Shown in pieces: positions 5,391 through 41,425 of a DNA stretch of 64,000 bases. The notes beneath the pieces were generated by a model. The model did no database searches, was not told the origin of the DNA, and saw only the letters and a program-made list of their open reading frames with translations. The stretch is from Candidatus Binatia bacterium (GTDB lineage Bacteria > Desulfobacterota > Binatia > HRBIN30 > BPIQ01), in the NCBI GenBank assembly GCA_026004195.1, contig BPIQ01000001.1, positions 653,871 to 717,870 of the forward strand. Reading direction: 5' to 3'. Each line of letters begins with the position of its first letter. The stretch's first letter is position 1. The translations under genes were made by a program, and so were the position numbers.

Positions 5391-6575
5391 GTGGAAAGAA
5401 CGTCCCTCGATCGATTCCGGGAGGAATTGCGGCGGTGGCTCGAGGCCAACATCCCCGACGACCTGCGTCCGGAGCGGGCCGCCCTGCTCCCCGAAAACGA
5501 ACGGGTGGTGCGGTTGCGGGCCTGGCAAAAAAAACTCGCCGAGGCCCGCTGGGTCGGAATCACCTGGCCGCCCGAGTACGGAGGGCGCGGAGCTTCGATC
5601 GCGGAGCAGATCGTCTACACGCAGGAAATGGCGCGTGCCGACGCGCCCGAAATCATCGGAAGTCTCGGCATCGGCATCCTGGGCCCGCCGCTGCTGGCCT
5701 ACGGCACGGAGGAACAGAAGCGCCGGTTCGCCCGCCGGATCCTGACGGCCGAGGATCTCTGGTGCTTCGGTTTTTCCGAACCCTCGGCCGGATCGGACCT
5801 GGCATCGCTGCGTACGCGAGCGGTCCTGGAAGGCGACGTCTTCGTGGTCTCCGGACACAAGATCTGGACCACGCTCGCCCACCACGCCGACTGGTGCATG
5901 CTCCTCTGTCGAACGGACCCCGAGTCGCACCGCAAAGAAGGGATTTCCTGTCTCCTCGTCGACATGCGGAGCCCCGGCATCACGGTACGCCCGCTCCGGC
6001 AAATGAGCGGCGAGGCGGAGTTCAACGAAATCTTTTTCGACGAGGTTCGGGTGCCCCGGGAAAATCTTCTCGGCGAGCTGCACAAGGGCTGGAAAGTCGC
6101 GACCTCGGCCCTGCAGAACGAACGGGGCATCCTGTACGTGGTCGAGATGCAGATCCTGCTCGCCAAGACACGGAACCGGCTCCTCGAGCTCGCCAGGGAA
6201 CGCGGGAAGGCGGGAGACCTCGTCGTTCGGCAAGCGCTGGCCGACCTGTACACCGGAGTGGAGACGTTCCGCAACACGTGCCAGAGGATCCTGAACCGGC
6301 TCCTGAGGATGGAGATGCCCGGACCCGAAGCGTCGATCGTCAAGCTCCACTGGTCGGAGTTGACGCAGGCGATGGCACGAACGGCCATGGAGCTCCTGGG
6401 AACCGAGGGGCTTCTCTACCGCACGCCGGAGCCCGGCGGCGAGCGGCCGGCACCCGAGCAGTGGGTGCAGCGGGCGTTTCTCAATTCCCCCGCTGCCACC
6501 ATAGCCTCGGGCACGTCGGAAATTCTGCGGGGGATCATCGCCATGCAGGTACTCGGGCTGCCGAGAGGGAGCTAG
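5391..6575 (+). CDS. acyl-CoA dehydrogenase
   Basis: 394 aa. Has the ACAD N-terminal, middle and C-terminal domains (GFSEPSAGSDLASL, WTT, C-terminal GTSEILRGIIA). Confidence 0.9.
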   Translation: MERTSLDRFREELRRWLEANIPDDLRPERAALLPENERVVRLRAWQKKLAEARWVGITWPPEYGGRGASIAEQIVYTQEMARADAPEIIGSLGIGILGPPLLAYGTEEQKRRFARRILTAEDLWCFGFSEPSAGSDLASLRTRAVLEGDVFVVSGHKIWTTLAHHADWCMLLCRTDPESHRKEGISCLLVDMRSPGITVRPLRQMSGEAEFNEIFFDEVRVPRENLLGELHKGWKVATSALQNERGILYVVEMQILLAKTRNRLLELARERGKAGDLVVRQALADLYTGVETFRNTCQRILNRLLRMEMPGPEASIVKLHWSELTQAMARTAMELLGTEGLLYRTPEPGGERPAPEQWVQRAFLNSPAATIASGTSEILRGIIAMQVLGLPRGS

Positions 6576-6644
6576 AGCGCCGGAAGCTGCCGCCGGCCTC
6601 CTCGGTCGCGACACGGGACGGCGGCGGAAAAAGGAGGAGTACAC

Positions 6645-7940
6645 ATGGAACTTCGCAAGGTGGCCATCCTCGGGGCCAACGGAACCATGGGGGCCGGGAG
6701 CGCGGAAGTTTTCGCCGCGGGTGGCTGCGAAGTCTTCCTGCTCGCCCGCTCGCGGGATCGTGCCCTCGAAGGGGTGCGGGTCGCGCAGAACCTGGCGAAG
6801 TCCGAGAGGATCGCCGACCGCATGCAGGTGGGGAGCTACGACGAGGACTTCGAGAAGGCCGTGGGCTCGGCGGACCTCGTCTTCGAGGCTCTGGCGGAGG
6901 ACCTGCAGTTGAAAAGTCTCTTCTTCGAGAGGGTGGACGCCTGTCGGAGGCCCGATTCGGTCGTGGCGACGGTGTCGTCGGGACTTTCCATCGCTCGCAT
7001 GGCGAGCGGCCGTAGCGAAAGCTTCCAGAGACACTTTCTCGGCATTCACCTCTTCAACCCGCCGAACGTCATCGTCGGAACGGAAGTGATCCCCCACGGC
7101 GGAACGGATCCCGAGCTCGTGCGCGAACTCGTCCCCCTGCTCGAGCGCCGGTTCGGCCGGAAAGTCGTCGTCTGCCGAGACAAGCCGGCCTTTTGCGGGA
7201 ACCGGGTCGGTTTCAAGGTCCTCAACGAGGTGGCCCAGCTCGCCGGCCGCCACGGCGTCGCCTTCCTCGACTACCTGATCGGACCCCACACGGGCAGGGC
7301 GATGCCGCCGCTCGCCACGGTGGACCTCGTCGGGTGGGACGTCCACAAGGCGATCGTGGACAACGTCTACGAGCTCGTACGGGACGAAGCCCACGAGGCC
7401 TTCCGGCTTCCCGACTACATGGCGCGGCTCGTCGACGAGGGGCGGCTCGGCAACAAGACGCCGGACCGGGGCGGCTTCTACAAGCGCGTCCAGAAGGACG
7501 GGCGCCGCGTCGAACTCTGTCTGGACCCGTCCACGGGCGAGTACCACGAGCCGCGGGTCGAAAAAATCCCCTTCGTCGAACGCATGAAAGAGCTGCACCA
7601 CGTCGGAAAATACCGCGACGCCTGGCGGGAGTTCGCCTCGGCGACGGGTCCCGAGGCGGAACTCGCGCACCGGGTCGTTCTCGGTTACGTGAGCTATGCT
7701 CTCCACCGCGTCGGACCCGACGAGGTCGTGGACCACGCTCGGGACGTGGACCGGATCATGGCGTTCGGATTCAACTGGGCCCCTCCCACGGTCCTCGTGG
7801 ACCTCCTCGGCCTCCGGGAGACCTGGAATTTGCTCGATCGCTACGGCCTGCCCGTCCCGCCCCTGCTCCGCGAGGCCCGTCCGGGAGAGAGGCTCTACCA
7901 GGAGAGGAGCGGGAACATCGGCCGGTTTTTCGCCGGCTGA
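6645..7940 (+). CDS. 3-hydroxyacyl-CoA dehydrogenase (NAD-binding + C-terminal domains)
   Basis: 431 aa. VAILGANGTMGAGSA Rossmann motif and the HADH C-terminal domain. Confidence 0.85.
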   Translation: MELRKVAILGANGTMGAGSAEVFAAGGCEVFLLARSRDRALEGVRVAQNLAKSERIADRMQVGSYDEDFEKAVGSADLVFEALAEDLQLKSLFFERVDACRRPDSVVATVSSGLSIARMASGRSESFQRHFLGIHLFNPPNVIVGTEVIPHGGTDPELVRELVPLLERRFGRKVVVCRDKPAFCGNRVGFKVLNEVAQLAGRHGVAFLDYLIGPHTGRAMPPLATVDLVGWDVHKAIVDNVYELVRDEAHEAFRLPDYMARLVDEGRLGNKTPDRGGFYKRVQKDGRRVELCLDPSTGEYHEPRVEKIPFVERMKELHHVGKYRDAWREFASATGPEAELAHRVVLGYVSYALHRVGPDEVVDHARDVDRIMAFGFNWAPPTVLVDLLGLRETWNLLDRYGLPVPPLLREARPGERLYQERSGNIGRFFAG

Positions 7941-8011
7941 AGACGGCGCTTGCCCCGGCGGCGCCCGAGGTGGTAGCTTCGGACGAGATTCCGGCGACAC
8001 GAGGAGGAACG

Positions 8012-9241
8012 ATGGCGAGACCGGTTTACGTCCTCGGGGGGTACCAGACGGACTTTGCACGCAACTGGAAAAAGGAAAACAAGCACATCGTCGCGATGAT
8101 CCGCGAAGCGGTCGAGGAGGGACTCGCGGCCACGGGCCTCGAACCCGGGGACATCCAGGTGGGCCACGTCGGCAACTTCGCGGCCGAACTCTACACGATG
8201 CAGGGGCACCTCGGCGCGTTTCTGGTCGACGTGGATCCGGCCTTCTCCGGCCTCCCGACGGCGCGCCACGAGGCGGCTTGCGCCTCGGGTAGCATCGCCA
8301 TCCTCGCGGCCTCGGCGGAGATCGAAGCGGGCCGGTACGACTGCTCGCTCGTCGTGGGCGTCGAGCAGATGAAGACGGTCGATCCCGCCCGGGGCGGCGA
8401 TTTTCTCGGAACCGCCGCCTGGTACGAACGCGAAGCGAAAGGGATCGAGTTCCCGTTCCCGAAGCTCTTCGGCCGACTCGGCGACGAGTACGACCGGCGC
8501 TACGGCCTCAAGGACGAGCACCTGGCCCGCATCTCCGCCGTCAACTACTCCAACGCCAAGCGCAACCCGAACGCCCAGACCCGCACCTGGTACATGACCG
8601 AGGACCACGCACGCTGCGTCGGCAAGTTCAACACCGTGATCGGCGGCCGCATCAAGGTTTCCGACTGCTCGCAGGTGACCGACGGTGCCGTCTCCCTTTT
8701 CCTCGCCTCGGAACGGTTCGCCGCCGAGTACGCGAAGCGCCGGGGGCTCGCGCTCGAGAAGATCCCGCGGATCCTGGGCTGGGGGCACAGGACGGCGCCG
8801 ATCGAGTTCTCGGCCAAGATCGAGGAAAGCAAGAACAACCCGTACGTCCTGCCGCACACACGGCAAGCCATCCTCGACGCTTTCCGCCGTGCGGGCCTAC
8901 CGGACGTGTGGGCGGTCGACGCCATCGAGACGCACGACTGCTTCACGACCTCCGAGTACATGGCCATCGACCACTTCGGCATCACGGCACCGGGCGAATC
9001 CTGGAAGGCCATCGAGGACGGCACGATCGAGCTCGGCGGCAAGATGCCGATCAACCCGAGTGGCGGTCTGATCGGATGCGGCCACCCGGTCGGCGCGACG
9101 GGCGTGCGGCAGGTCCTCGACGCCTACCTCCAGGTCACCGGGCAAGCCGGGGAGTACCAGGTCGAGGGTGCGCGTCGCGTGGCCACGCTCAACATCGGGG
9201 GGAGCGGGACGACCAGCGTTTCTTTCGTCGTCGGCTTCTAG
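8012..9241 (+). CDS. thiolase-family protein (acetyl-CoA acetyltransferase/SCP-x-like)
   Basis: ATG at 8012 after GAGGAGG. MARPVYVLGGYQTDF... with CASGS active-site region and C-terminal GHPVGATG. Confidence 0.85.
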   Translation: MARPVYVLGGYQTDFARNWKKENKHIVAMIREAVEEGLAATGLEPGDIQVGHVGNFAAELYTMQGHLGAFLVDVDPAFSGLPTARHEAACASGSIAILAASAEIEAGRYDCSLVVGVEQMKTVDPARGGDFLGTAAWYEREAKGIEFPFPKLFGRLGDEYDRRYGLKDEHLARISAVNYSNAKRNPNAQTRTWYMTEDHARCVGKFNTVIGGRIKVSDCSQVTDGAVSLFLASERFAAEYAKRRGLALEKIPRILGWGHRTAPIEFSAKIEESKNNPYVLPHTRQAILDAFRRAGLPDVWAVDAIETHDCFTTSEYMAIDHFGITAPGESWKAIEDGTIELGGKMPINPSGGLIGCGHPVGATGVRQVLDAYLQVTGQAGEYQVEGARRVATLNIGGSGTTSVSFVVGF

Positions 9242-33549: not shown

Positions 33550-34848
33550 TCAGCGATCCGCGAACGTGAACATCGTGATGCCGTCGCCCAGAATGGGCAG
33601 GTGGAGCTGCGGAGCCGCGAAGACGAGCCTACCGGGGCCACCTTCTCGCTCGAAGTCCGTGCAGGAAAAGTTCTCCCCGCGGAGCTCGAACTCGAGAGGT
33701 GGAACCCCGACGAGGGCGTTCGGATTCTCGACTCGTCCGAAAGACCGTTCGGTGGTGAACGCCAGAGCCAGAGAAATTCCCGTCCCCTCGTCCCCACAGG
33801 GCAGAGCGGATTCCTGCGAGAGCTCGACGGGAAACCCCTGGAGACCCAGTTGCGGAAGCGGCGCGATCACCATGGCCCCGGGGGAGACGTCGCGGTCGTC
33901 GGGCTGCACGACCCCCAAGGGGCCGTTGCAGACACCCGGATGCGGAGCACCCGCTCCCTCCACGAGACCTCCCGCCGCGAGGCAATCCTGTTCCGTAAAA
34001 CCGTCCACCCCCACCGTACCGAGCACGTGGTTCTGGACGAGCCCGGCGGAGAAAGACGCGCTCGGGCGGCACGAGAGAAGGATCGCGTCCCGGTCCACGA
34101 CCGTCTCGCCGTTCCGCTCTCCGCGGGCGACCGCACGCACCACCTGCCCTGCAGGACGACCGCAAGAGAGAAGCCCTGCCGCCGAGACCGGAGCCATCGG
34201 CTTCAGGCAAAGGACGAGACCGGCCAAGGCTCGGAGGTCGGCGAACAGGTATTCCGACGTGTCCACGATGTCCACGACGGCCACACCCGTCTGCGGGTCG
34301 GTCGGGCCCGCATGGAACACGATCTCGCCCTGGAAGGGCCCGAGGGCGAGACCGTTGACGCCGAACGACGAGCCACCGGGCGAGAGGACGAAACGCCGGG
34401 TGCCGATCTCGGGGCGGAATTGCCCGCGCAACGGCACCTCCACCGGAACGGGATCCGTGCAAGCCGATTCCCCGGCCGGCAGGAGCTCGCGGAGTGCGGC
34501 CGAGAGGCTCCGCGCGACACTCCCCCCTCGCAACCGGACGGCGGAAATTTCCACACCCGTCGGGTCGCAATCGGGAAGGTCCGGGTCGGGTGTCGCGAGA
34601 CACACCGAGAGCGAGAACGTGCACTTCCCGTCGACGGCTCCGTCCTCGTCGCACTCGGGATCGCCGTCGGCGCAGTCGACGACCCGCGATCCCGGTGCCC
34701 TCGGCTCCACTCCTCCCCACGTGAGGAGGCAATCCGTCGAACGTCGACCGCCGCCTTCGATTTCGCAGTTCTCGGGACAATCGGCCCCGGCGAGAACGGG
34801 CAAAAGGCAGAAAACGAGCGCCGAGGAAACGATGCCGAATCTTTTCAT
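33550..34848 (-). CDS. secreted cysteine-rich hypothetical protein
   Basis: Internal ATG with GGGGAAAG RBS. Signal peptide [22 protein letters not shown], then a Cys/Asp-rich N-terminal segment ([11 protein letters not shown]...[19 protein letters not shown]). 432 aa. No recognisable family. Confidence 0.6.
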
Positions 34849-34990: not shown

Positions 34991-35710
34991 TCAGGGCCCC
35001 AGGATGCGGAGCTCCACGCGGCGGTTCCGCGCCCTTCCTTCGGGCGTGTCGTTCGACGCGATCGGTCTCGACTCGCCGTATCCGACCACCGAGAGCCGCG
35101 CCGGGTCGATGCCGGCCGCGACGAGATAACGGTAGACCGCTCGGGCACGGCGTTCGGAGAGCTTCTGGTTGTAAGCCTCGCTCGCGATCGAATCCGTGTG
35201 TCCTTCGATCACGACCTTGACGTCCGGATTCTCGCGGAGGATGGCCACGGCCTCCTCGAGCACGGGCCGGGCATCGGGACGGATATCGCTCTTGTCGTAG
35301 TCGAACTCGACCCCGCGCAGGATGATCTTTTTCTTGACGGGCCGGGGGGTCGGGGTCGGGGGTGGGAGCGTGGGGGTCGGTGTCGGTGTCGGAGCTTCCG
35401 GATCGAACACCATGTGGCCCACGAGGCCACAGAGCACGAGACCCACGGCCCCGCCGATCAGCGCCCCTTTCCACTGCTCCTTGTCGTCGCAAACGACGAC
35501 CGGGGGCTCCCCTTCGACGTTGAGCGCCGTGCATCCCGGCCGGTTGTTCTGGATGACCCACCCGGTTCCCGCCCCGACGGCGCCGCACGCGAGCGCCGGG
35601 ACGAGCGTGCCCTTCCCCCACGGCTTGCGCGCCATTCGCCGTGCGAAGTCGCATCCGCAGAGAACGAGCAGGCACGCGCAAGCGGCCACCAACGTTCGGC
35701 TTCTGAGCAT
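34991..35710 (-). CDS. OmpA-family protein (membrane N-terminal part + PT spacer + OmpA C-terminal peptidoglycan-binding domain)
   Basis: C-terminal ...FDYDKSDIRPDARPVLEE...NRRVELRI is the OmpA_C motif. A short PT spacer ([21 protein letters not shown]) links to a Gly-rich membrane N-terminal part. Confidence 0.8.
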   Translation of the reverse strand: MLRSRTLVAACACLLVLCGCDFARRMARKPWGKGTLVPALACGAVGAGTGWVIQNNRPGCTALNVEGEPPVVVCDDKEQWKGALIGGAVGLVLCGLVGHMVFDPEAPTPTPTPTLPPPTPTPRPVKKKIILRGVEFDYDKSDIRPDARPVLEEAVAILRENPDVKVVIEGHTDSIASEAYNQKLSERRARAVYRYLVAAGIDPARLSVVGYGESRPIASNDTPEGRARNRRVELRILGP

Positions 35711-36252: not shown

Positions 36253-37307
36253 GGCATTTTCTCCCCGACCTTCGGCTTCTCGAAGCGTGCGGCACGCGGG
36301 CCGCGTCGGATCTCGCCGATCCACCAAGCCTGCTCTCCCCCGCGCCCGAGTTCCCCGAGGAGCTCGGGGGCGACCTTCCTCTCGACGACGAGCACGAACC
36401 CCACCCCCATGTTGAACGTCCGGTACATTTCTCTCTCCCCGACGGGCCCGAGCCGAGCGACGAGGTCGAAAATCGGCGGGACCGGCCACGTACCCTTCCA
36501 GAACACGACCCCGTGCCCCTCCGGCAGCACACGCGGGACGTTCTCGACGAGTCCTCCGCCCGTGATGTGAGCCATGGCCTTGACCCGGAAGCGCGTCAGG
36601 ATCCGGCGGACGAGCGGGACGTAAATCCTGGTCGGCCGCAAGAGCTCGTCGGCGAGCCTGCAGCCGAGCTCCGGAATGCGCGCGTCGAGGGGGAGCGCGG
36701 CTTTGTCGAGAAGGACGCGGCGCACCAGCGAGAAGCCGTTGCTGTGGAGGCCCGCCGAAGCGAGGCCGATCACGGCATCCCCCTCCCGCACGTCCCGGCC
36801 GTCGACGACTTTTTTCTCCTCGACCACGCCGACGACGAAGCCCGCAAGATCGTACTCCCCGCCGGGGTAGAACGACGGCAGCTCCGCGATTTCCCCGCCC
36901 ACCAGCGCGCAACCGGCCTCCCTGCACCCCTCGGCGATGCCCGCGAGGACTTCCTTCGCCACGCGCGTTTCGAGCCTTCCGGTCGCGAAGTAGTCGAGGA
37001 ACACGAGCGGCTCCGCCCCGAGCGTGAGTACGTCGTTGACGTTCATCGCCACGAGGTCGATTCCCACCTCGCGATGCCGTGCCGCGGCCAGGGCCACGCG
37101 CAGTTTCGTCCCCACGCCGTCCGTGGACGCGACCCAGAGGGGCCGGCGGTACCGGCGCGGCGCGCGGAAGAGAGCCCCGAACCCGCCGATGCCCCGGAGA
37201 ACCTCGGGCCGCGAGGTCTTCCGTGCGAGCTCGGCGATCGTATCCACCAGCCGACTCGCCCTGCGCGCGTCGACCCCTGCCGATCGGTAACTCAGCCCTC
37301 GCGCCAT
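36249..37307 (-). CDS. purM: phosphoribosylformylglycinamidine cyclo-ligase (AIR synthetase)
   Basis: Internal ATG of ORF 36249..38546. MARGLSYRSAGVD...DGVGTKL...HITGGG. 352 aa. Confidence 0.9.
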   Translation of the reverse strand: MARGLSYRSAGVDARRASRLVDTIAELARKTSRPEVLRGIGGFGALFRAPRRYRRPLWVASTDGVGTKLRVALAAARHREVGIDLVAMNVNDVLTLGAEPLVFLDYFATGRLETRVAKEVLAGIAEGCREAGCALVGGEIAELPSFYPGGEYDLAGFVVGVVEEKKVVDGRDVREGDAVIGLASAGLHSNGFSLVRRVLLDKAALPLDARIPELGCRLADELLRPTRIYVPLVRRILTRFRVKAMAHITGGGLVENVPRVLPEGHGVVFWKGTWPVPPIFDLVARLGPVGEREMYRTFNMGVGFVLVVERKVAPELLGELGRGGEQAWWIGEIRRGPRAARFEKPKVGEKMP

Positions 37308-37367
37308 GGAGAAAGAACGTCGCTCTTGTCTTGACCGCGCCCGGCGAGACCCGTATGGGAAGGCGCC

Positions 37368-38558
37368 GTGCGCGTCTTCGGGTCGAAGGAAACGCTCGGG
37401 TTCCTCGCCTGCCTTTTCGTCCTGTTCCCCGCCCCCTCTTACGCGGAGCCCTACCTCGCCCTTCGGGCCGGCGAGCCCTGCGACGCCTGTCATACCAACA
37501 TGACCGGCGGTGGCAAGCGGACGGACCTCGTAGCCATGCACGCGCGCGAGATTCTCCGCTACCCGCGCTGGCTCGGAACGTTCTTCGCCGACGCGGACCG
37601 CTTCACGGGAGAGCTTCACCCCCGCGTGTCCCTCGGCGCGGATCTCCGGACTTCCTACACCGCCCTCTTCCAGGACGAACCCGACGAACGAGGGCTCGTC
37701 GAGAACAACACGGCCTTTCGGGACTTTCACGAAAGCCGCCTCGACGTGACGCAGGCCACGGGCTTCCTCGAGCTCGAACTTTTCACGGACCGGCTGGCCC
37801 TCTACGTCGACCAGCGCCTTTCGCCCACGACGGACAACCGCGAAGCGTTCGCGTTGCTGCGGGGGCTTCCCTGGAACGGCTTTCTCAAGGTGGGACGGAT
37901 GTTCCTGCCCTACGGCCTCCAGCTCCAGGACGACCGGGCTTTTGTCCGCGACGGCTACGAAGGCGTCTCGCCACGAACCGGCTTCAGTTTCGACGCGAGC
38001 CAGGGTGCACTGGAGCTCGGAATCCGACCCGGCCCGTTCCGTTTCGTCACGGCGGTGTCCGAGGGCCGCGGCGGGGACAGAGACGTGCAGTGGACGGGCA
38101 CCGGGAGCCTCTGGCTCGGCGAACTCCCGTGGGTCGACCACGCGATGCTCGGAGGATCCTTTTCCCTCGACGACGCGGGCGACGATCCGACCTGGCTTCT
38201 CGGCGCGTTCGGGGGTCTCTCCCGGGGCCCCGTCGTTCTGCTGGCCGAAGTCGACTTCCGCAGCGAGAAGGGAGAGACGACCGGCGGGGGACGACACGGC
38301 ACTTTTCTCGCTTATGCCGAGGCGAACTATCTCCTGTTCGGCTGGCTCAACGCCAAGCTCGCCTTCGATTACGCGGACGACGACGGAGACCTCCGGCAAC
38401 GGGCCGACGACAGCGAGAATCGGCTGAGTGTCGGCTTCGAGCCTTTTCTCTCCCGTTTTCTCCAGCTCCGCTTCTTCTACCGCGTGGGAAACGGCGTGAG
38501 GTCGAGACCCGAACACAATCGCGACGAGCTTCTGGCCGAGGCGCACCTCTTCTTCTGA
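37368..38558 (+). CDS. putative outer-membrane β-barrel protein with N-terminal CxxCH motif
   Basis: Signal peptide MRVFGSKETLGFLACLFVLFPAPSYA, then EPCDACH near the mature N-terminus. Alternating amphipathic strands and a C-terminal ...HLFF aromatic terminus. 396 aa. Confidence 0.6.
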   Translation: MRVFGSKETLGFLACLFVLFPAPSYAEPYLALRAGEPCDACHTNMTGGGKRTDLVAMHAREILRYPRWLGTFFADADRFTGELHPRVSLGADLRTSYTALFQDEPDERGLVENNTAFRDFHESRLDVTQATGFLELELFTDRLALYVDQRLSPTTDNREAFALLRGLPWNGFLKVGRMFLPYGLQLQDDRAFVRDGYEGVSPRTGFSFDASQGALELGIRPGPFRFVTAVSEGRGGDRDVQWTGTGSLWLGELPWVDHAMLGGSFSLDDAGDDPTWLLGAFGGLSRGPVVLLAEVDFRSEKGETTGGGRHGTFLAYAEANYLLFGWLNAKLAFDYADDDGDLRQRADDSENRLSVGFEPFLSRFLQLRFFYRVGNGVRSRPEHNRDELLAEAHLFF

Positions 38559-38579
38559 ACACCCCCGCGCCCCCCGTTT

Positions 38580-39017
38580 TCACGAATCGCCGGAGTCGGC
38601 ACGCGGAGCCCCGTCGAGGATCCAACCGACGATCAGAGCGATCTCGTCCTCGGAAAGCGGGGCTTCCCCGAGCGGCATGCGGCTGCCCTCGCCCGCCCGG
38701 GGCCCCCCGAGCTTGCGGACGAGAAAGCTTCGCTCCGGCTCGAACGGTGCCACCCGAAGATCTCCGGCCGCCCGCGCGGCGGGATTGTCCGGCTCGACGC
38801 CCACGAGCTCGTCGAAGGCGGCAGGCCCGGAAAGGTCGAGCCCGCCGGCCCGCGTCTGCGGAGAGTGGCAGGGCCCGGAGGTACAGCGCCGGTCGAAGAT
38901 CTCGCGCTGGATGCGTCCGAAGTCTCCACCGGTCGTGAACGCGACGGGCCCGTCACCGGCACAACCGAAAAGGCACAGGGCGGCCGCGCACCCGATCCGG
39001 CGGAGAAAGGCCCCCAC
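38580..39017 (-). CDS. lipoprotein with PSCyt1-like (Planctomycete-type cytochrome c) domain
   Basis: Lipobox LFGC, then IQREIFDRRCTSGPCHS...AGGLDLS...MPLGEAPLSEDEIALIVGWILDGA, matching the PSCyt1 layout but with CX4CH instead of CxxCH. 145 aa. Confidence 0.55.
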   Translation of the reverse strand: MGAFLRRIGCAAALCLFGCAGDGPVAFTTGGDFGRIQREIFDRRCTSGPCHSPQTRAGGLDLSGPAAFDELVGVEPDNPAARAAGDLRVAPFEPERSFLVRKLGGPRAGEGSRMPLGEAPLSEDEIALIVGWILDGAPRADSGDS

Positions 39018-39056
39018 GAGGCGACCCGGACGCGAGCAGCCGCGGAGAGGGTTCCC

Positions 39057-39422
39057 TCAACGAGAACGGGCTTCGAGCACCGTGAGAGCGCTCATCCCGT
39101 GCTTCGTATGCTTTTCGCCCTTGACGACGGCGTTCTCGCCCGCGAGTTTTTTCGCTTCCTCGTACGGCTCGGAGTTCGCGTGGTCGTCGATGAGGAGATA
39201 GAGTTCGCCGTTTTCCGTGAGAAGCCCGATCGGTTTACCCCCTTTGGCGCACATCTTCGCGCAGCTCGCGTGTCCGGCACCCCTCTTACCGTGGCCGAGA
39301 TAACAGGCGAGGTCGACGATTTCCCCTTCGACGGTGACCGGCTCCGCGAAGACCCTGCCGGTCCAGAAAAACACGAGGCCCGACACGAGAGAAAGGAGAA
39401 CCGCCTGTCGGAACGTTCTCAT
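39057..39422 (-). CDS. small secreted Cys/His-containing hypothetical protein
   Basis: Internal ATG gives signal peptide MRTFRQAVLLSLVSGLVFFWTGRVFA. The mature ~95 aa carries CYLGHG...HASCAKMCAKGG. Confidence 0.45.
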   Translation of the reverse strand: MRTFRQAVLLSLVSGLVFFWTGRVFAEPVTVEGEIVDLACYLGHGKRGAGHASCAKMCAKGGKPIGLLTENGELYLLIDDHANSEPYEEAKKLAGENAVVKGEKHTKHGMSALTVLEARSR

Positions 39423-39473
39423 ACCCACCGCTCCCTTGGACAACGATGCCGGGCCCTAGTAAACTCTCCCAAC

Positions 39474-40679
39474 GTGGCCTTGTCAATCGGAGAGGGCGCA
39501 AGCGGCGCGGGAGTGTCCGCGAAGCTCCCGTTCGCCGTGCTCTCCCGCGCGGAGGGGGTCTCGCACGGAAACGAATCGGCGGAAGAGACCGGCGGCTACA
39601 CGTTCCGGGAACAGGCCTTTTTCGTCTACGGGACGGGGCTCGCCATCGGACTCCACCTGGCCCTCGTCCATGTCTTCATCTTCCGAACGTGGGCCGTCCT
39701 CCCGATCACGATCGCGGCCACGTTTCTCTTCTCGAGCGCCACGCTCGGCCTCTGGCGGTGGGTTTTCCCCCGTCTCGCTCACCTCCCGTCGCGCCCGCGC
39801 CTTCTCGCGCAGGCGGGCATTTCCGTGGGCGTTTTCGCGGTGACTTCCGTCCTCGTGACCGAGGGGAACGCGGCGCTCACCGCCGCCCGCTCCCTCTTCC
39901 AGCCCTACACGGGAGGGGACCGCGTGGTGACCATCCCGTCGTACATGATCCGCTGGGCCCCGCTCGTCTACACGCTCATCCCGATCGCGCCGACGGCCAT
40001 CATGTGCGTCATCGGCTTCAACCATCACTGGTGGCGCATTTTCCGTCTCGAGGGGCGGCAGAGAGAACTCCAGGCCTGGGCCACCTCGGCCCAGCTCGCG
40101 GCCCTGCGCGCGCAGATGAACCCGCACTTTTTCTTCAACTCGCTCAACTCGATCGCACAGTTGATCTCCTCGGACCCCCGCCAGGCGGAGCGGTGCGTGG
40201 AGCAGCTCGCCGAGGTCTACCGCTACCTCCTTCGCCGCTCGGACAAGGACTTCGTGCCCCTGACGGACGAACTCAAGGTCACGCAGGCTTACCTCGAAAT
40301 CGAGCGGGCCCGGTTCGGCGACGAACTCCGGGTCCAGTGGCACGTCGATCCGGGTGCCGGCGAGACGAGCGTCCCCGCCTTCGTGCTGCAGCCGCTCGTC
40401 GAAAACGCCGTGCGGCACGGGGTGTCGGGAAAACTCGGCGGTGGGGTCGTGCGCGTCGAAGCCCTGCTCCGCAACGGCGACCTCGAGCTCCGAGTGTCGG
40501 ACACCGGCGCAGGGATCGCCGACTCGTCGTCCGTTTTCGAAAGCGGCGTGGCCCTGCGGAACATCCGCGAGCGGCTCGTGAACCTCTACGGCCCGGCGTA
40601 CGCCCCCGAAGTCCGGAGTCGGCCCGGAGAGGGCACCTCCGTGCGCATCCGAATCCCCGTGACGGAGACGCGGTCGTGA
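39474..40679 (+). CDS. sensor histidine kinase, LytS/YehU family
   Basis: Polytopic N-terminal membrane region, then NPHFFFNSLNSI (His_kinase PF06580) and HATPase_c (VENAVRHG...DTGAGI). GTG start chosen downstream of the opposite-strand gene. Start is uncertain. Confidence 0.75.
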   Translation: MALSIGEGASGAGVSAKLPFAVLSRAEGVSHGNESAEETGGYTFREQAFFVYGTGLAIGLHLALVHVFIFRTWAVLPITIAATFLFSSATLGLWRWVFPRLAHLPSRPRLLAQAGISVGVFAVTSVLVTEGNAALTAARSLFQPYTGGDRVVTIPSYMIRWAPLVYTLIPIAPTAIMCVIGFNHHWWRIFRLEGRQRELQAWATSAQLAALRAQMNPHFFFNSLNSIAQLISSDPRQAERCVEQLAEVYRYLLRRSDKDFVPLTDELKVTQAYLEIERARFGDELRVQWHVDPGAGETSVPAFVLQPLVENAVRHGVSGKLGGGVVRVEALLRNGDLELRVSDTGAGIADSSSVFESGVALRNIRERLVNLYGPAYAPEVRSRPGEGTSVRIRIPVTETRS

Positions 40680-41425
40680 TCCGCGCTGTCGTGGTCGACG
40701 ACGAAAAGCTCGCCCGGGACCGTCTCGTCGGCTTTCTCCGGGAAGCCGGCGACGTGGCCATCGAAGGCGAGGCGAGAAACGGGCCCGAAGCGCTACGGTT
40801 GATCGAGGAGAAGGACCCGGACCTCGTGCTTCTCGACGTGCAGATGCCGGGCATGAACGGGTTCGAAGTCCTGCGCCGGCTCCAGAAGCGTCCGCACGTC
40901 GTCTTCGCCACGGCGTACGACGAGTACGCGCTCCGGGCCTTCGAGGTGGAAGCGGTCGACTACCTCCTCAAGCCGGTCTCGCGAGACCGGCTTCTCGAGG
41001 CACTCCGGCGCGTACGGGCGAGGCTCGAATCCCATGCGCCGCCGCCCGACTTCGCCGCGCTCGTGCGGAGGTTCGAAGCCTCTCGCCCCCGCTACCTCGA
41101 ACGCATCCCCGTACATCGCGGCAGGCAGATCCTGCTCCTGCCGGTCGAGACCGTTTTCTGGTTCGCCGTCGAGTTCCGGCTCGTCTACGCGCACACGGCG
41201 ACGGACCGCTACATGACGAACTTCACGCTACGGGAACTCGAAGAGAAGCTCGACCCGGACGTTTTCTTCCGGGCACACAAATCCAGGCTCGTGAACCTCG
41301 AGCAGGTGCGCGCCATTCGACGATCGCTGGGCCGCTACCGACTCGTCATGAAGGACGAGAAAGCCACGGAGCTCGAGCTCAGCCGGACCCAGGCCCGGGT
41401 GCTCCGCGCCCGGCTCGGCTGGTAG
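40676..41425 (+). CDS. LytTR-family response regulator
   Basis: REC domain (VVVDDEKLARD...DLVLLDVQMPGMNGFEV) plus LytTR DNA-binding domain. Its GTG overlaps the kinase stop (GTGA). Confidence 0.8.
   Translation: MIRAVVVDDEKLARDRLVGFLREAGDVAIEGEARNGPEALRLIEEKDPDLVLLDVQMPGMNGFEVLRRLQKRPHVVFATAYDEYALRAFEVEAVDYLLKPVSRDRLLEALRRVRARLESHAPPPDFAALVRRFEASRPRYLERIPVHRGRQILLLPVETVFWFAVEFRLVYAHTATDRYMTNFTLRELEEKLDPDVFFRAHKSRLVNLEQVRAIRRSLGRYRLVMKDEKATELELSRTQARVLRARLGW

Follow-up and report, generated by a model that had tools for sequence, protein, structure and literature searches.

FoxE of Rhodobacter ferrooxidans SW2 (PDB 5MAB), a dihaem Fe(II) oxidoreductase encoded together with foxY (for a pyrroloquinoline quinone, PQQ, protein) and foxZ, is a periplasmic c-type haem protein with two CXXCH repeats and two His/Met-ligated haems, where the Met of either repeat ligates the haem of its partner (PMC10654088). 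The Cyc2 pathway of neutrophilic and acidophilic iron oxidisers comprises periplasmic cytochromes such as Cyc1 and Cyc2 itself, a fused cytochrome-porin iron oxidase for whose porin part OprP and OprO have been reported as templates (PMC8406198). Attachment of haem c at the spacing CX4CH is accepted for other cytochromes, including cytochrome c3 (PMC10454114; see also PMC5566968). Here, we analysed a stretch of 64,000 nucleotides (hereafter the window) from contig BPIQ01000001.1 of a Candidatus Binatia bacterium, in which a gene at 38580–39017 on the minus strand encodes a 145-residue lipoprotein with a PSCyt1-like domain carrying a CX4CH motif, next to a gene for an outer-membrane porin that carries at its N-terminus a CXXCH motif of its own. 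For the uncultured Binatia, we are not aware of any iron-oxidation or extracellular electron-transfer system that has been described. While the PSCyt1-type domain as such was already known, the variant features here are the occurrence of CX4CH in a His/Met monohaem domain, together with the lipoprotein form of this domain in a conserved haem-porin cluster.

The 145-residue protein is most likely a lipoprotein of a PSCyt1-like family, namely a c-type cytochrome with a single haem. This assignment is based on the invariance of Cys, Cys, His, Met and Pro across the family, the alignment of CX4CH domains with CXXCH domains, Pfam matches confined to cytochrome c families and a match to FoxE. With regard to function, we regard as reasonably probable, from sequence and gene context, that it would be exported by Sec, anchored by lipid and used as a periplasmic electron relay between the haem-porin and redox partners in the inner membrane. 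The work is of moderate, specialist interest, and the cluster as a candidate envelope electron conduit in Binatia is the part of it that deserves an experiment.

The open reading frame (ORF) at 38580–39017 starts with GTG, and its guanine-plus-cytosine (GC) content at the three codon positions is 0.75, 0.59 and 0.82, i.e., the coding-like pattern of real genes in this window (overall GC 67.6%), which the ORFs overlapping it in other frames lack. Since third-position GC is coding-like and a protein from a Candidatus Binatia metagenome-assembled genome (MAG) at NCBI, KatS3mg076_0614, is 100% identical to it over its full length, the ORF is a real gene, to which the homologue conservation and profile links described below can be added.

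The CTSGPCH motif (Cys45, Cys50 and His51; residues 45–51, DNA positions 38865–38885, minus strand) contains the only two cysteines that the mature protein, as read from its sequence, possesses beyond the lipobox Cys. Met114-Pro115 (38673–38678, minus strand), the predicted distal (sixth) haem ligand motif, lies within SRMPLG (residues 112–117), which is followed by IVGWILDGA; the C-terminal landmark SRMPLGEAPLSEDEIALIVGWILDGA, singled out in an earlier note made on this DNA from its letters alone, is indeed present. There are nine close homologues of the protein, several of which are 251–254 residues long and have the domain twice. In 12 aligned close domains, Cys, Cys, His and Met-Pro were invariant, as was the Trp of WI..GA. 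Across 63 diverse CX4CH domains (22–55% identical to the query), Cys, Cys, His, Met and Pro were the sole invariant columns, with the Trp conserved in at least 90%, and in 36 CXXCH sister domains the same five columns were invariant, plus Ser and Trp. Conservation of the Cys and His residues in orthologues, on which the earlier note had staked its reading, is therefore complete in both CX4CH sets, and that of Cys, Cys, His and Met-Pro is far beyond chance. Apart from a His/Met c-type haem site, few features would be expected to give such a pattern of invariant columns.

A profile of the 12 close domains was compared with 1.84 billion representative proteins, and yielded 18,254 matches at E ≤ 0.001 and 6,202 at E ≤ 1e-10. 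In the best 158 family members, 378 domains were delimited, 223 of them with CX4CH, 125 with CXXCH and 7 with CX3CH, the remainder being partial matches except for two domains with other spacings; Met-Pro or Met-Ala was found close to the C-terminus in nearly all. Rather than the exceptional deviation for which it had been taken, CX4CH is the majority spacing among these 158 proteins. The three spacings alternate within single proteins and between orthologues. Examples of the latter are a distant locus (L013), where a lipoprotein with CKICH is encoded immediately upstream of a porin homologue, and a set of fusion proteins with CAACH in one case (L012) versus CNVSTCH in the others (L008–L011). 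We infer that CX4CH represents a two-residue insertion in the attachment loop and defines a large, conserved sub-branch of the domain family. The free-standing form, also thought unusual at first, is ordinary in this family, because several lipobox-bearing homologues of 160–190 residues are single-domain proteins; tandem forms of one to eight domains also occur, as do fusions to CHRD, Ig-like or Cu-monooxygenase-like domains.

The relationship with known cytochromes emerged from profile comparisons. In hhalign, the CX4CH and CXXCH profiles aligned over 108 columns with a probability of 100% (E 5.5e-45) and, single-member gaps aside, differed solely by a two-residue indel inside the motif. When the 63 CX4CH domains were scanned singly against Pfam, 16 matched PSCyt1 (E ≤ 0.01), five Cytochrome_CBB3 and two Cytochrom_C, with no other family found; among the 36 CXXCH sister domains the corresponding counts were 22, 13 and 10, and one matched the cytochrome c family PccH. 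With respect to the PSCyt1 gathering score of 22 bits (PF07635), the close two-domain homologue P0010 reached 24 bits, the CX4CH-containing homologue P0014 reached 42.6 bits, with a best stretch (residues 193–253) that begins at CAVSGCH, and the positional orthologue at locus L014 remained below the cut-off with 19.2 bits. A search of PDB sequences with the broad CX4CH profile placed FoxE first (E 1.6e-7), with both of its repeats aligned from haem motif to C-terminal helix, CX4CH falling on CTTCH and RMP on RMP; cytochromes c6 ranked next, aligned at Met-Pro. The narrower 12-domain profile found FoxE weakly (E 0.01). The proposal of a lipoprotein that has one cytochrome-c-type domain, closest in Pfam to PSCyt1, has thus been borne out through relatives and profiles, and the PSCyt1 link of the 145-residue protein holds only by that route. 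Our protein and PSCyt1 share a domain layout, in which an N-terminal helix with the haem motif at its end is followed by a central PG.P..S.L..K stretch and a C-terminal MP....L....I..I..WI..GA, and Pfam calls PSCyt1 in relatives found with the profile derived from our protein, CX4CH domains included. In contrast to canonical PSCyt1 domains, the 145-residue protein has CX4CH instead of CXXCH, has no PF07635 score and is a free-standing lipoprotein rather than the N-terminus of a PSD1/DUF1553 giant. In terms of annotation, standard scans with Pfam and NCBIfam often overlook the cytochrome c domain of a large set of predicted proteins; CX4CH is found in many of the best 150, and haem-counting pipelines restricted to CXXCH would undercount such proteins. 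Moreover, the alternation of CX4CH, CXXCH and CX3CH in one fold represents a natural experiment on the tolerance of cytochrome c maturation.

The first 19 codons (38961–39017, minus strand) specify a predicted signal peptide and lipobox, MGAFLRRIGCAAALCLFG-C19-AGDG, read from the sequence and backed by homologue conservation, in which a hydrophobic stretch leads to CLFGC and then AGDG, with Cys19 as the residue at which the mature protein would begin and be lipidated. In five homologues (P0006, P0073, P0091, P0113 and P0154) and in the L014 and L016 orthologues, the Cys is likewise followed by AG[DEGT]G. By sequence, the protein carries what is expected of a bacterial lipoprotein, namely a signal peptide and, at its end, a lipobox whose Cys does not vary. 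A further Cys, at position –4, we take to be a slight departure from the PROSITE-type rule. A Tat signal, suggested by an RR pair, was rejected because the surrounding residues are unlike the Tat consensus and because apocytochromes c are exported by Sec. Export by Sec would be followed by cleavage by signal peptidase II, leaving a mature protein of approximately 127 residues that starts at lipidated Cys19. As residue +2 is Ala, the Escherichia coli sorting rule, which is not known to hold in this lineage, would place it at the inner face of the outer membrane, near the porin.

The protein thus combines an export signal with a conserved Cys-X4-Cys-His and a conserved distal Met, the features by which a c-type cytochrome is recognised. 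Haem would be held covalently by Cys45 and Cys50, with His51 as the proximal and Met114 as the distal axial ligand of the iron, in a fold predicted to belong to the cytochrome c clan, with PSCyt1 (PF07635) as the nearest named family and FoxE as the nearest solved structure. The multihaem CX4CH cytochromes, such as tetrahaem cytochrome c3, share the same attachment spacing, which is accepted there as haem-binding. They differ in fold, and our protein is a monohaem domain with a conserved Met-Pro; the CX4CH sites of multihaem cytochromes are bis-His ligated. The CX4CH spacing in a His/Met monohaem domain is widespread, and we found no description of it in the literature. Compared with FoxE, which the lipoprotein would resemble in being a periplasmic His/Met c-type haem protein, there is one CX4CH repeat instead of two CXXCH repeats with crosswise Met ligation, a lipid anchor is predicted and no foxYZ-like genes are found as neighbours.

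The gene adjoining that of the lipoprotein encodes a 396-residue protein (37368–38558, plus strand) with an N-terminal CDACH (residues 38–42, DNA positions 37479–37493), which is predicted to be an outer-membrane porin by its structural model, by Foldseek and by its homologues. The AlphaFold2 (AF2) model, built from 69 sequences, has a mean predicted local distance difference test score (pLDDT) of 82.9; in it, some 45 N-terminal residues, partly helical and including the motif, precede 16 strands. Foldseek comparison with the PDB placed OprP first (E 1.9e-12) and OprO sixth. Neither Pfam nor NCBIfam contains a match for it, and its family of at least 295 members, all unnamed, has a near-invariant N-terminus, AEPY.A.REG..C..CH.N.TGGGKR, and ends in FF. 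CXXCH was present in 118 of 120 homologues, and the two exceptions have truncated or mis-called N-termini. In common with Cyc2, the porin has a signal peptide, a single N-terminal CXXCH, 16 predicted strands resembling OprP and OprO, and a length above 365 residues. The published Cyc2 signature (PMC8406198) has two parts, of which AXPXFAR[Q/K][T/Y] precedes CXXCH by five residues and PXL follows it by four. Of the upstream part there is only a partial counterpart, AEPYLALRAGEP-C in this porin and AEPY[LFIM]A[LV]R, with the consensus AEPY[IFM]AVREG..C, in the family, at a spacing of three residues, and PXL has none, TNMTGGGKR following CXXCH instead. The porin thus appears Cyc2-like in architecture, while its membership of Cyc2, compared by published motifs, is not established. 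In two metagenome contigs (L004 and L005, positions 6252–8700), genes for an HMA-domain protein and a MerA-like reductase, and in L005 also for MerT, were located immediately downstream of the porin homologue. They look like an insertion, because a third locus with the same upstream flank (L002; ABC transporter, DUF2255 and PD40-like genes) lacks the mer genes.

On the other side of the cytochrome gene, separated from it by 39 nucleotides, a gene absent from the earlier note (39057–39443, minus strand; the NCBI start, 39422, is seven codons later) encodes a 128-residue protein, and the shared strand and short gap lead us to infer that both genes are co-transcribed. The predicted product belongs to a group of secreted proteins of about 120 residues with the pattern C...H..CA.MCA, or more fully GEIVDL.CY...G..H..CA..C.K.G.PIGLL...YLL, for which 29 homologues were found. 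This small Cys3-His protein matched no Pfam or NCBIfam family, and the PDB search gave a chance-level ribosomal match only; its three Cys and one His suggest a metal or redox site. One homologue, in an Elusimicrobiota MAG (L017, 5001–5378), is located among RND efflux, OEP and multicopper oxidase genes.

The order small protein → cytochrome ← porin was found in the window and in the Binatia-type loci L001, L014 and L016, as well as in L015, where it is cut by the contig end. In L001, on a 4.77-Mb contig, the small protein, a 161-residue CX4CH lipoprotein and the porin are 48%, 55% and 50% identical, respectively, to their counterparts in the window. The complete order in L014 and L016 is SLT-LysM, regulator, kinase, small protein, cytochrome, porin and OmpA, and L015 covers it from the regulator to the start of the cytochrome gene. 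A LytS-type histidine kinase gene and a LytTR-family regulator gene, which have the same position in the window, L014, L015 and L016, are also conserved, the pair with 57–62% identity and the regulator with 61–62%. In the cytochromes of L014–L016, a linker of some 100 residues, rich in Pro and Thr, connects two CX4CH domains, the first of which is 55–56% identical to the window protein, the gene for which is a single-domain form of a conserved cluster member and not a fragment. The alternative that it is a truncated pseudogene of the two-domain form was rejected, given that no remnant of a second domain lies in the 21 nucleotides before the porin stop codon and that the L001 protein is also single-domain. 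In the distant MAG represented by L013, genes for a dihaem cytochrome c, the 178-residue CKICH lipoprotein and the porin homologue follow each other on one strand. Here, identity to the window is 34% for the lipoprotein and 30% for the porin, whose N-terminus reads AEAYLAVREG..C..CH.N.TGGGKR. The earlier description of the lipoprotein gene as directly next to that of a CXXCH barrel thus stands in that both adjoin and that their synteny is conserved, whereas they are convergent, with 21 nucleotides between their stop codons, and do not form one operon. Given the conserved synteny, its reading as part of a small redox module of the envelope was a fair one.

Taken together, these data lead us to propose that the lipoprotein would serve as a membrane-tethered periplasmic one-electron carrier, passing electrons between the outer-membrane haem-porin and redox partners in the inner membrane, for instance while a metal such as Fe(II) is oxidised outside the cell or in the periplasm. 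The porin is suggested as its partner by analogy with Cyc2 and its periplasmic cytochromes, and a LytS/LytTR system, often divergent from the cluster, might control it. As in the Cyc2 pathway, a small cytochrome predicted to be periplasmic is encoded beside a protein of cytochrome-porin architecture, and L013 has in addition a dihaem, c4-like cytochrome; the periplasmic partner differs, being a CX4CH lipoprotein here and Cyc1 there. With regard to the substrate, Fe(II) is weakly suggested by the resemblance to FoxE. As a conserved pair, the cytochrome and the haem-motif porin provide a concrete, testable candidate for outer-membrane electron transfer in Binatia. A broader proposal, which we put forward only tentatively, is that Binatia and some other uncultured lineages would possess an undescribed envelope conduit composed of a 16-strand haem-porin other than canonical Cyc2, a PSCyt1-like CX4CH lipoprotein cytochrome with one or two domains and the Cys3-His protein under LytS/LytTR control, and that electrons would pass between it and a metal outside the cell or in the periplasm, e.g., in Fe(II) oxidation, with the CX4CH branch as the first large class of His/Met monohaem domains having this spacing.

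A number of results weigh against the relay proposal, some of which concern the protein itself. PF07635, whose significant match had been named as a test of the PSCyt1 assignment, was not matched by the 145-residue protein even at E ≤ 1 in a direct Pfam scan, and the test succeeds only for some of its relatives. The only Pfam hit was a sub-threshold one to CTI, the cytochrome part of fatty-acid cis/trans isomerase (E 0.35), NCBIfam gave a match to TIGR03806, a family of dihaem cytochromes, that was weak (E 5.7e-4) and well short of the cut-off, and the cytochrome orthologue of L001 had no Pfam match whatever. The AF2 model of the cytochrome domain, built from 12 sequences, had a pLDDT of 68.8 with low confidence near the motif, and in Foldseek against the PDB nothing significant was retrieved, the best match being the hydrazine synthase alpha subunit (E 1.5). 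Ligation by Met114 of the haem of its own domain is an assumption that we grade as likely and no higher, because the Met residues of FoxE ligate the haem of the other repeat. In addition, no shown haem attachment was found in the literature for any member of the CX4CH branch, and the window contains neither respiratory nor cytochrome-maturation genes. Others concern the pairing with the porin. The porin and cytochrome genes, being convergent, are not co-transcribed, the porin family is much larger than the close family of the cytochrome, porin genes without an adjacent cytochrome gene occur in L002, L004 and L005, and in L003 the porin lies 4 kb from a two-domain cytochrome. Close cytochrome homologues were also found elsewhere, beside SLT, UGSC-family and haem-biosynthesis genes. 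Finally, in L008–L011 (approximately 5560–7218) and L012 (5803–7317) proteins of around 450–550 residues consist of the cytochrome domain fused to a His-rich C-terminal domain (HH...H, HxH...M). This C-terminal domain was identified in L012, from a Gemmatimonas MAG, as Cu2_monoox_C with 28.5 bits; L008–L011 come from three Binatia MAGs and one genome labelled delta proteobacterium. By their sequences, these fusions may be cytochrome-fed copper monooxygenases.

Many of these observations would also be explained if the protein were a genuine haem c lipoprotein acting as a general periplasmic carrier for another enzyme (a terminal oxidase, peroxidase or copper monooxygenase, for example), and if its adjacency to the haem-porin were inherited Binatia gene order that reflects no functional coupling. 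The solitary porins of L002, L004 and L005, the fusions to a Cu2_monoox_C-like domain in L008–L012, the presence of the domain in multidomain redox proteins (L022) and beside SLT and UGSC genes, and the conservation of the cluster flanks (OmpA and SLT-LysM), as plain synteny predicts, are all in favour of this. Against it stand the triad, which is kept at about 50% protein identity, and L013, where, at 34% and 30% identity, the lipoprotein and porin genes follow a dihaem cytochrome gene side by side and on one strand, an arrangement that is hard to obtain from inherited order alone. We therefore consider a general carrier unlikely, and prefer the relay with the haem-porin.

A further alternative, which we judge to be quite unlikely, is a module for metal homeostasis or detoxification, e.g., of copper, in which the metal would be bound by the Cys3-His protein and let in or out by the porin, while electrons would be supplied or taken up by the cytochrome, e.g., in oxidising Cu(I) or Fe(II), without energy conservation. 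The context of the small protein in the Elusimicrobiota MAG, the mer genes adjoining the porin in L004 and L005, the dedicated two-component system divergent from the operon and the lack of respiratory genes nearby in the window are consistent with this idea. However, the small protein argument has a single distant context as its basis, the mer genes look inserted and are absent from L002, and the cytochrome, the porin and the small protein match no metal-binding family. That haem was lost altogether and the Cys, Cys and His form a disulfide or metal site in a structural lipoprotein, as the unusual spacing, the lack of a direct Pfam match and the low-confidence model around the motif might suggest, is highly improbable, considering that precisely the haem-binding set (Cys, Cys, His and Met-Pro) is invariant across diverse members, that CXXCH and CX3CH take its place elsewhere in single proteins and in orthologues, and that haem is bound by CX4CH in cytochrome c3 and others.

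A second, different conserved context of the domain was found around homologues P0003 and P0004 and in L018 (1093–2193), where a 251-residue two-domain CX4CH homologue is followed by one or two genes for small UGSC-family (seleno)proteins and then by a gene for a soluble protein of about 367 residues that had no Pfam match. Around P0004, genes for haem biosynthesis (ALAD and a TP_methylase/HEM4 fusion) are also found, at a distance of a few genes. The 366/367-residue protein encoded after the two-domain homologues P0003 and P0004 was considered as a possible barrel and rejected, as its L018 equivalent is soluble-looking and had no barrel match. A metagenome scan returned six mostly short loci, none with the porin. 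Finally, L022 (1833–8511) contains a further redox cluster in which the CX4CH domain is used; here, a 983-residue protein that has CX4CH three times and CXXCH once is encoded next to a 768-residue protein with two CXXCH motifs and a five-haem cytochrome.

With respect to the remaining neighbourhood, the kinase gene of the window (39474–40679, plus strand; His_kinase and HATPase_c in Pfam) has an uncertain start, at a GTG at 39474, 39513 or 39537, and is overlapped at its downstream end by that of the LytTR-family response regulator (40676–41425, plus strand; Pfam). It is divergent from the small-protein and cytochrome genes, and one sigma-70-like promoter site was located in the shared intergenic region (39437–39465); a terminator scan of 37200–39800 gave results no better than those for shuffled sequence. 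Farther out, the window contains purM, purU, OmpA, SLT-LysM, DegP and PBP1 genes. An ORF of 390 codons at 33550–34722 on the minus strand, without a Pfam family, specifies a protein with a signal peptide and a Cys-rich region near its N-terminus, and adjoins a gene for an OmpA-like lipoprotein (34991–35710).

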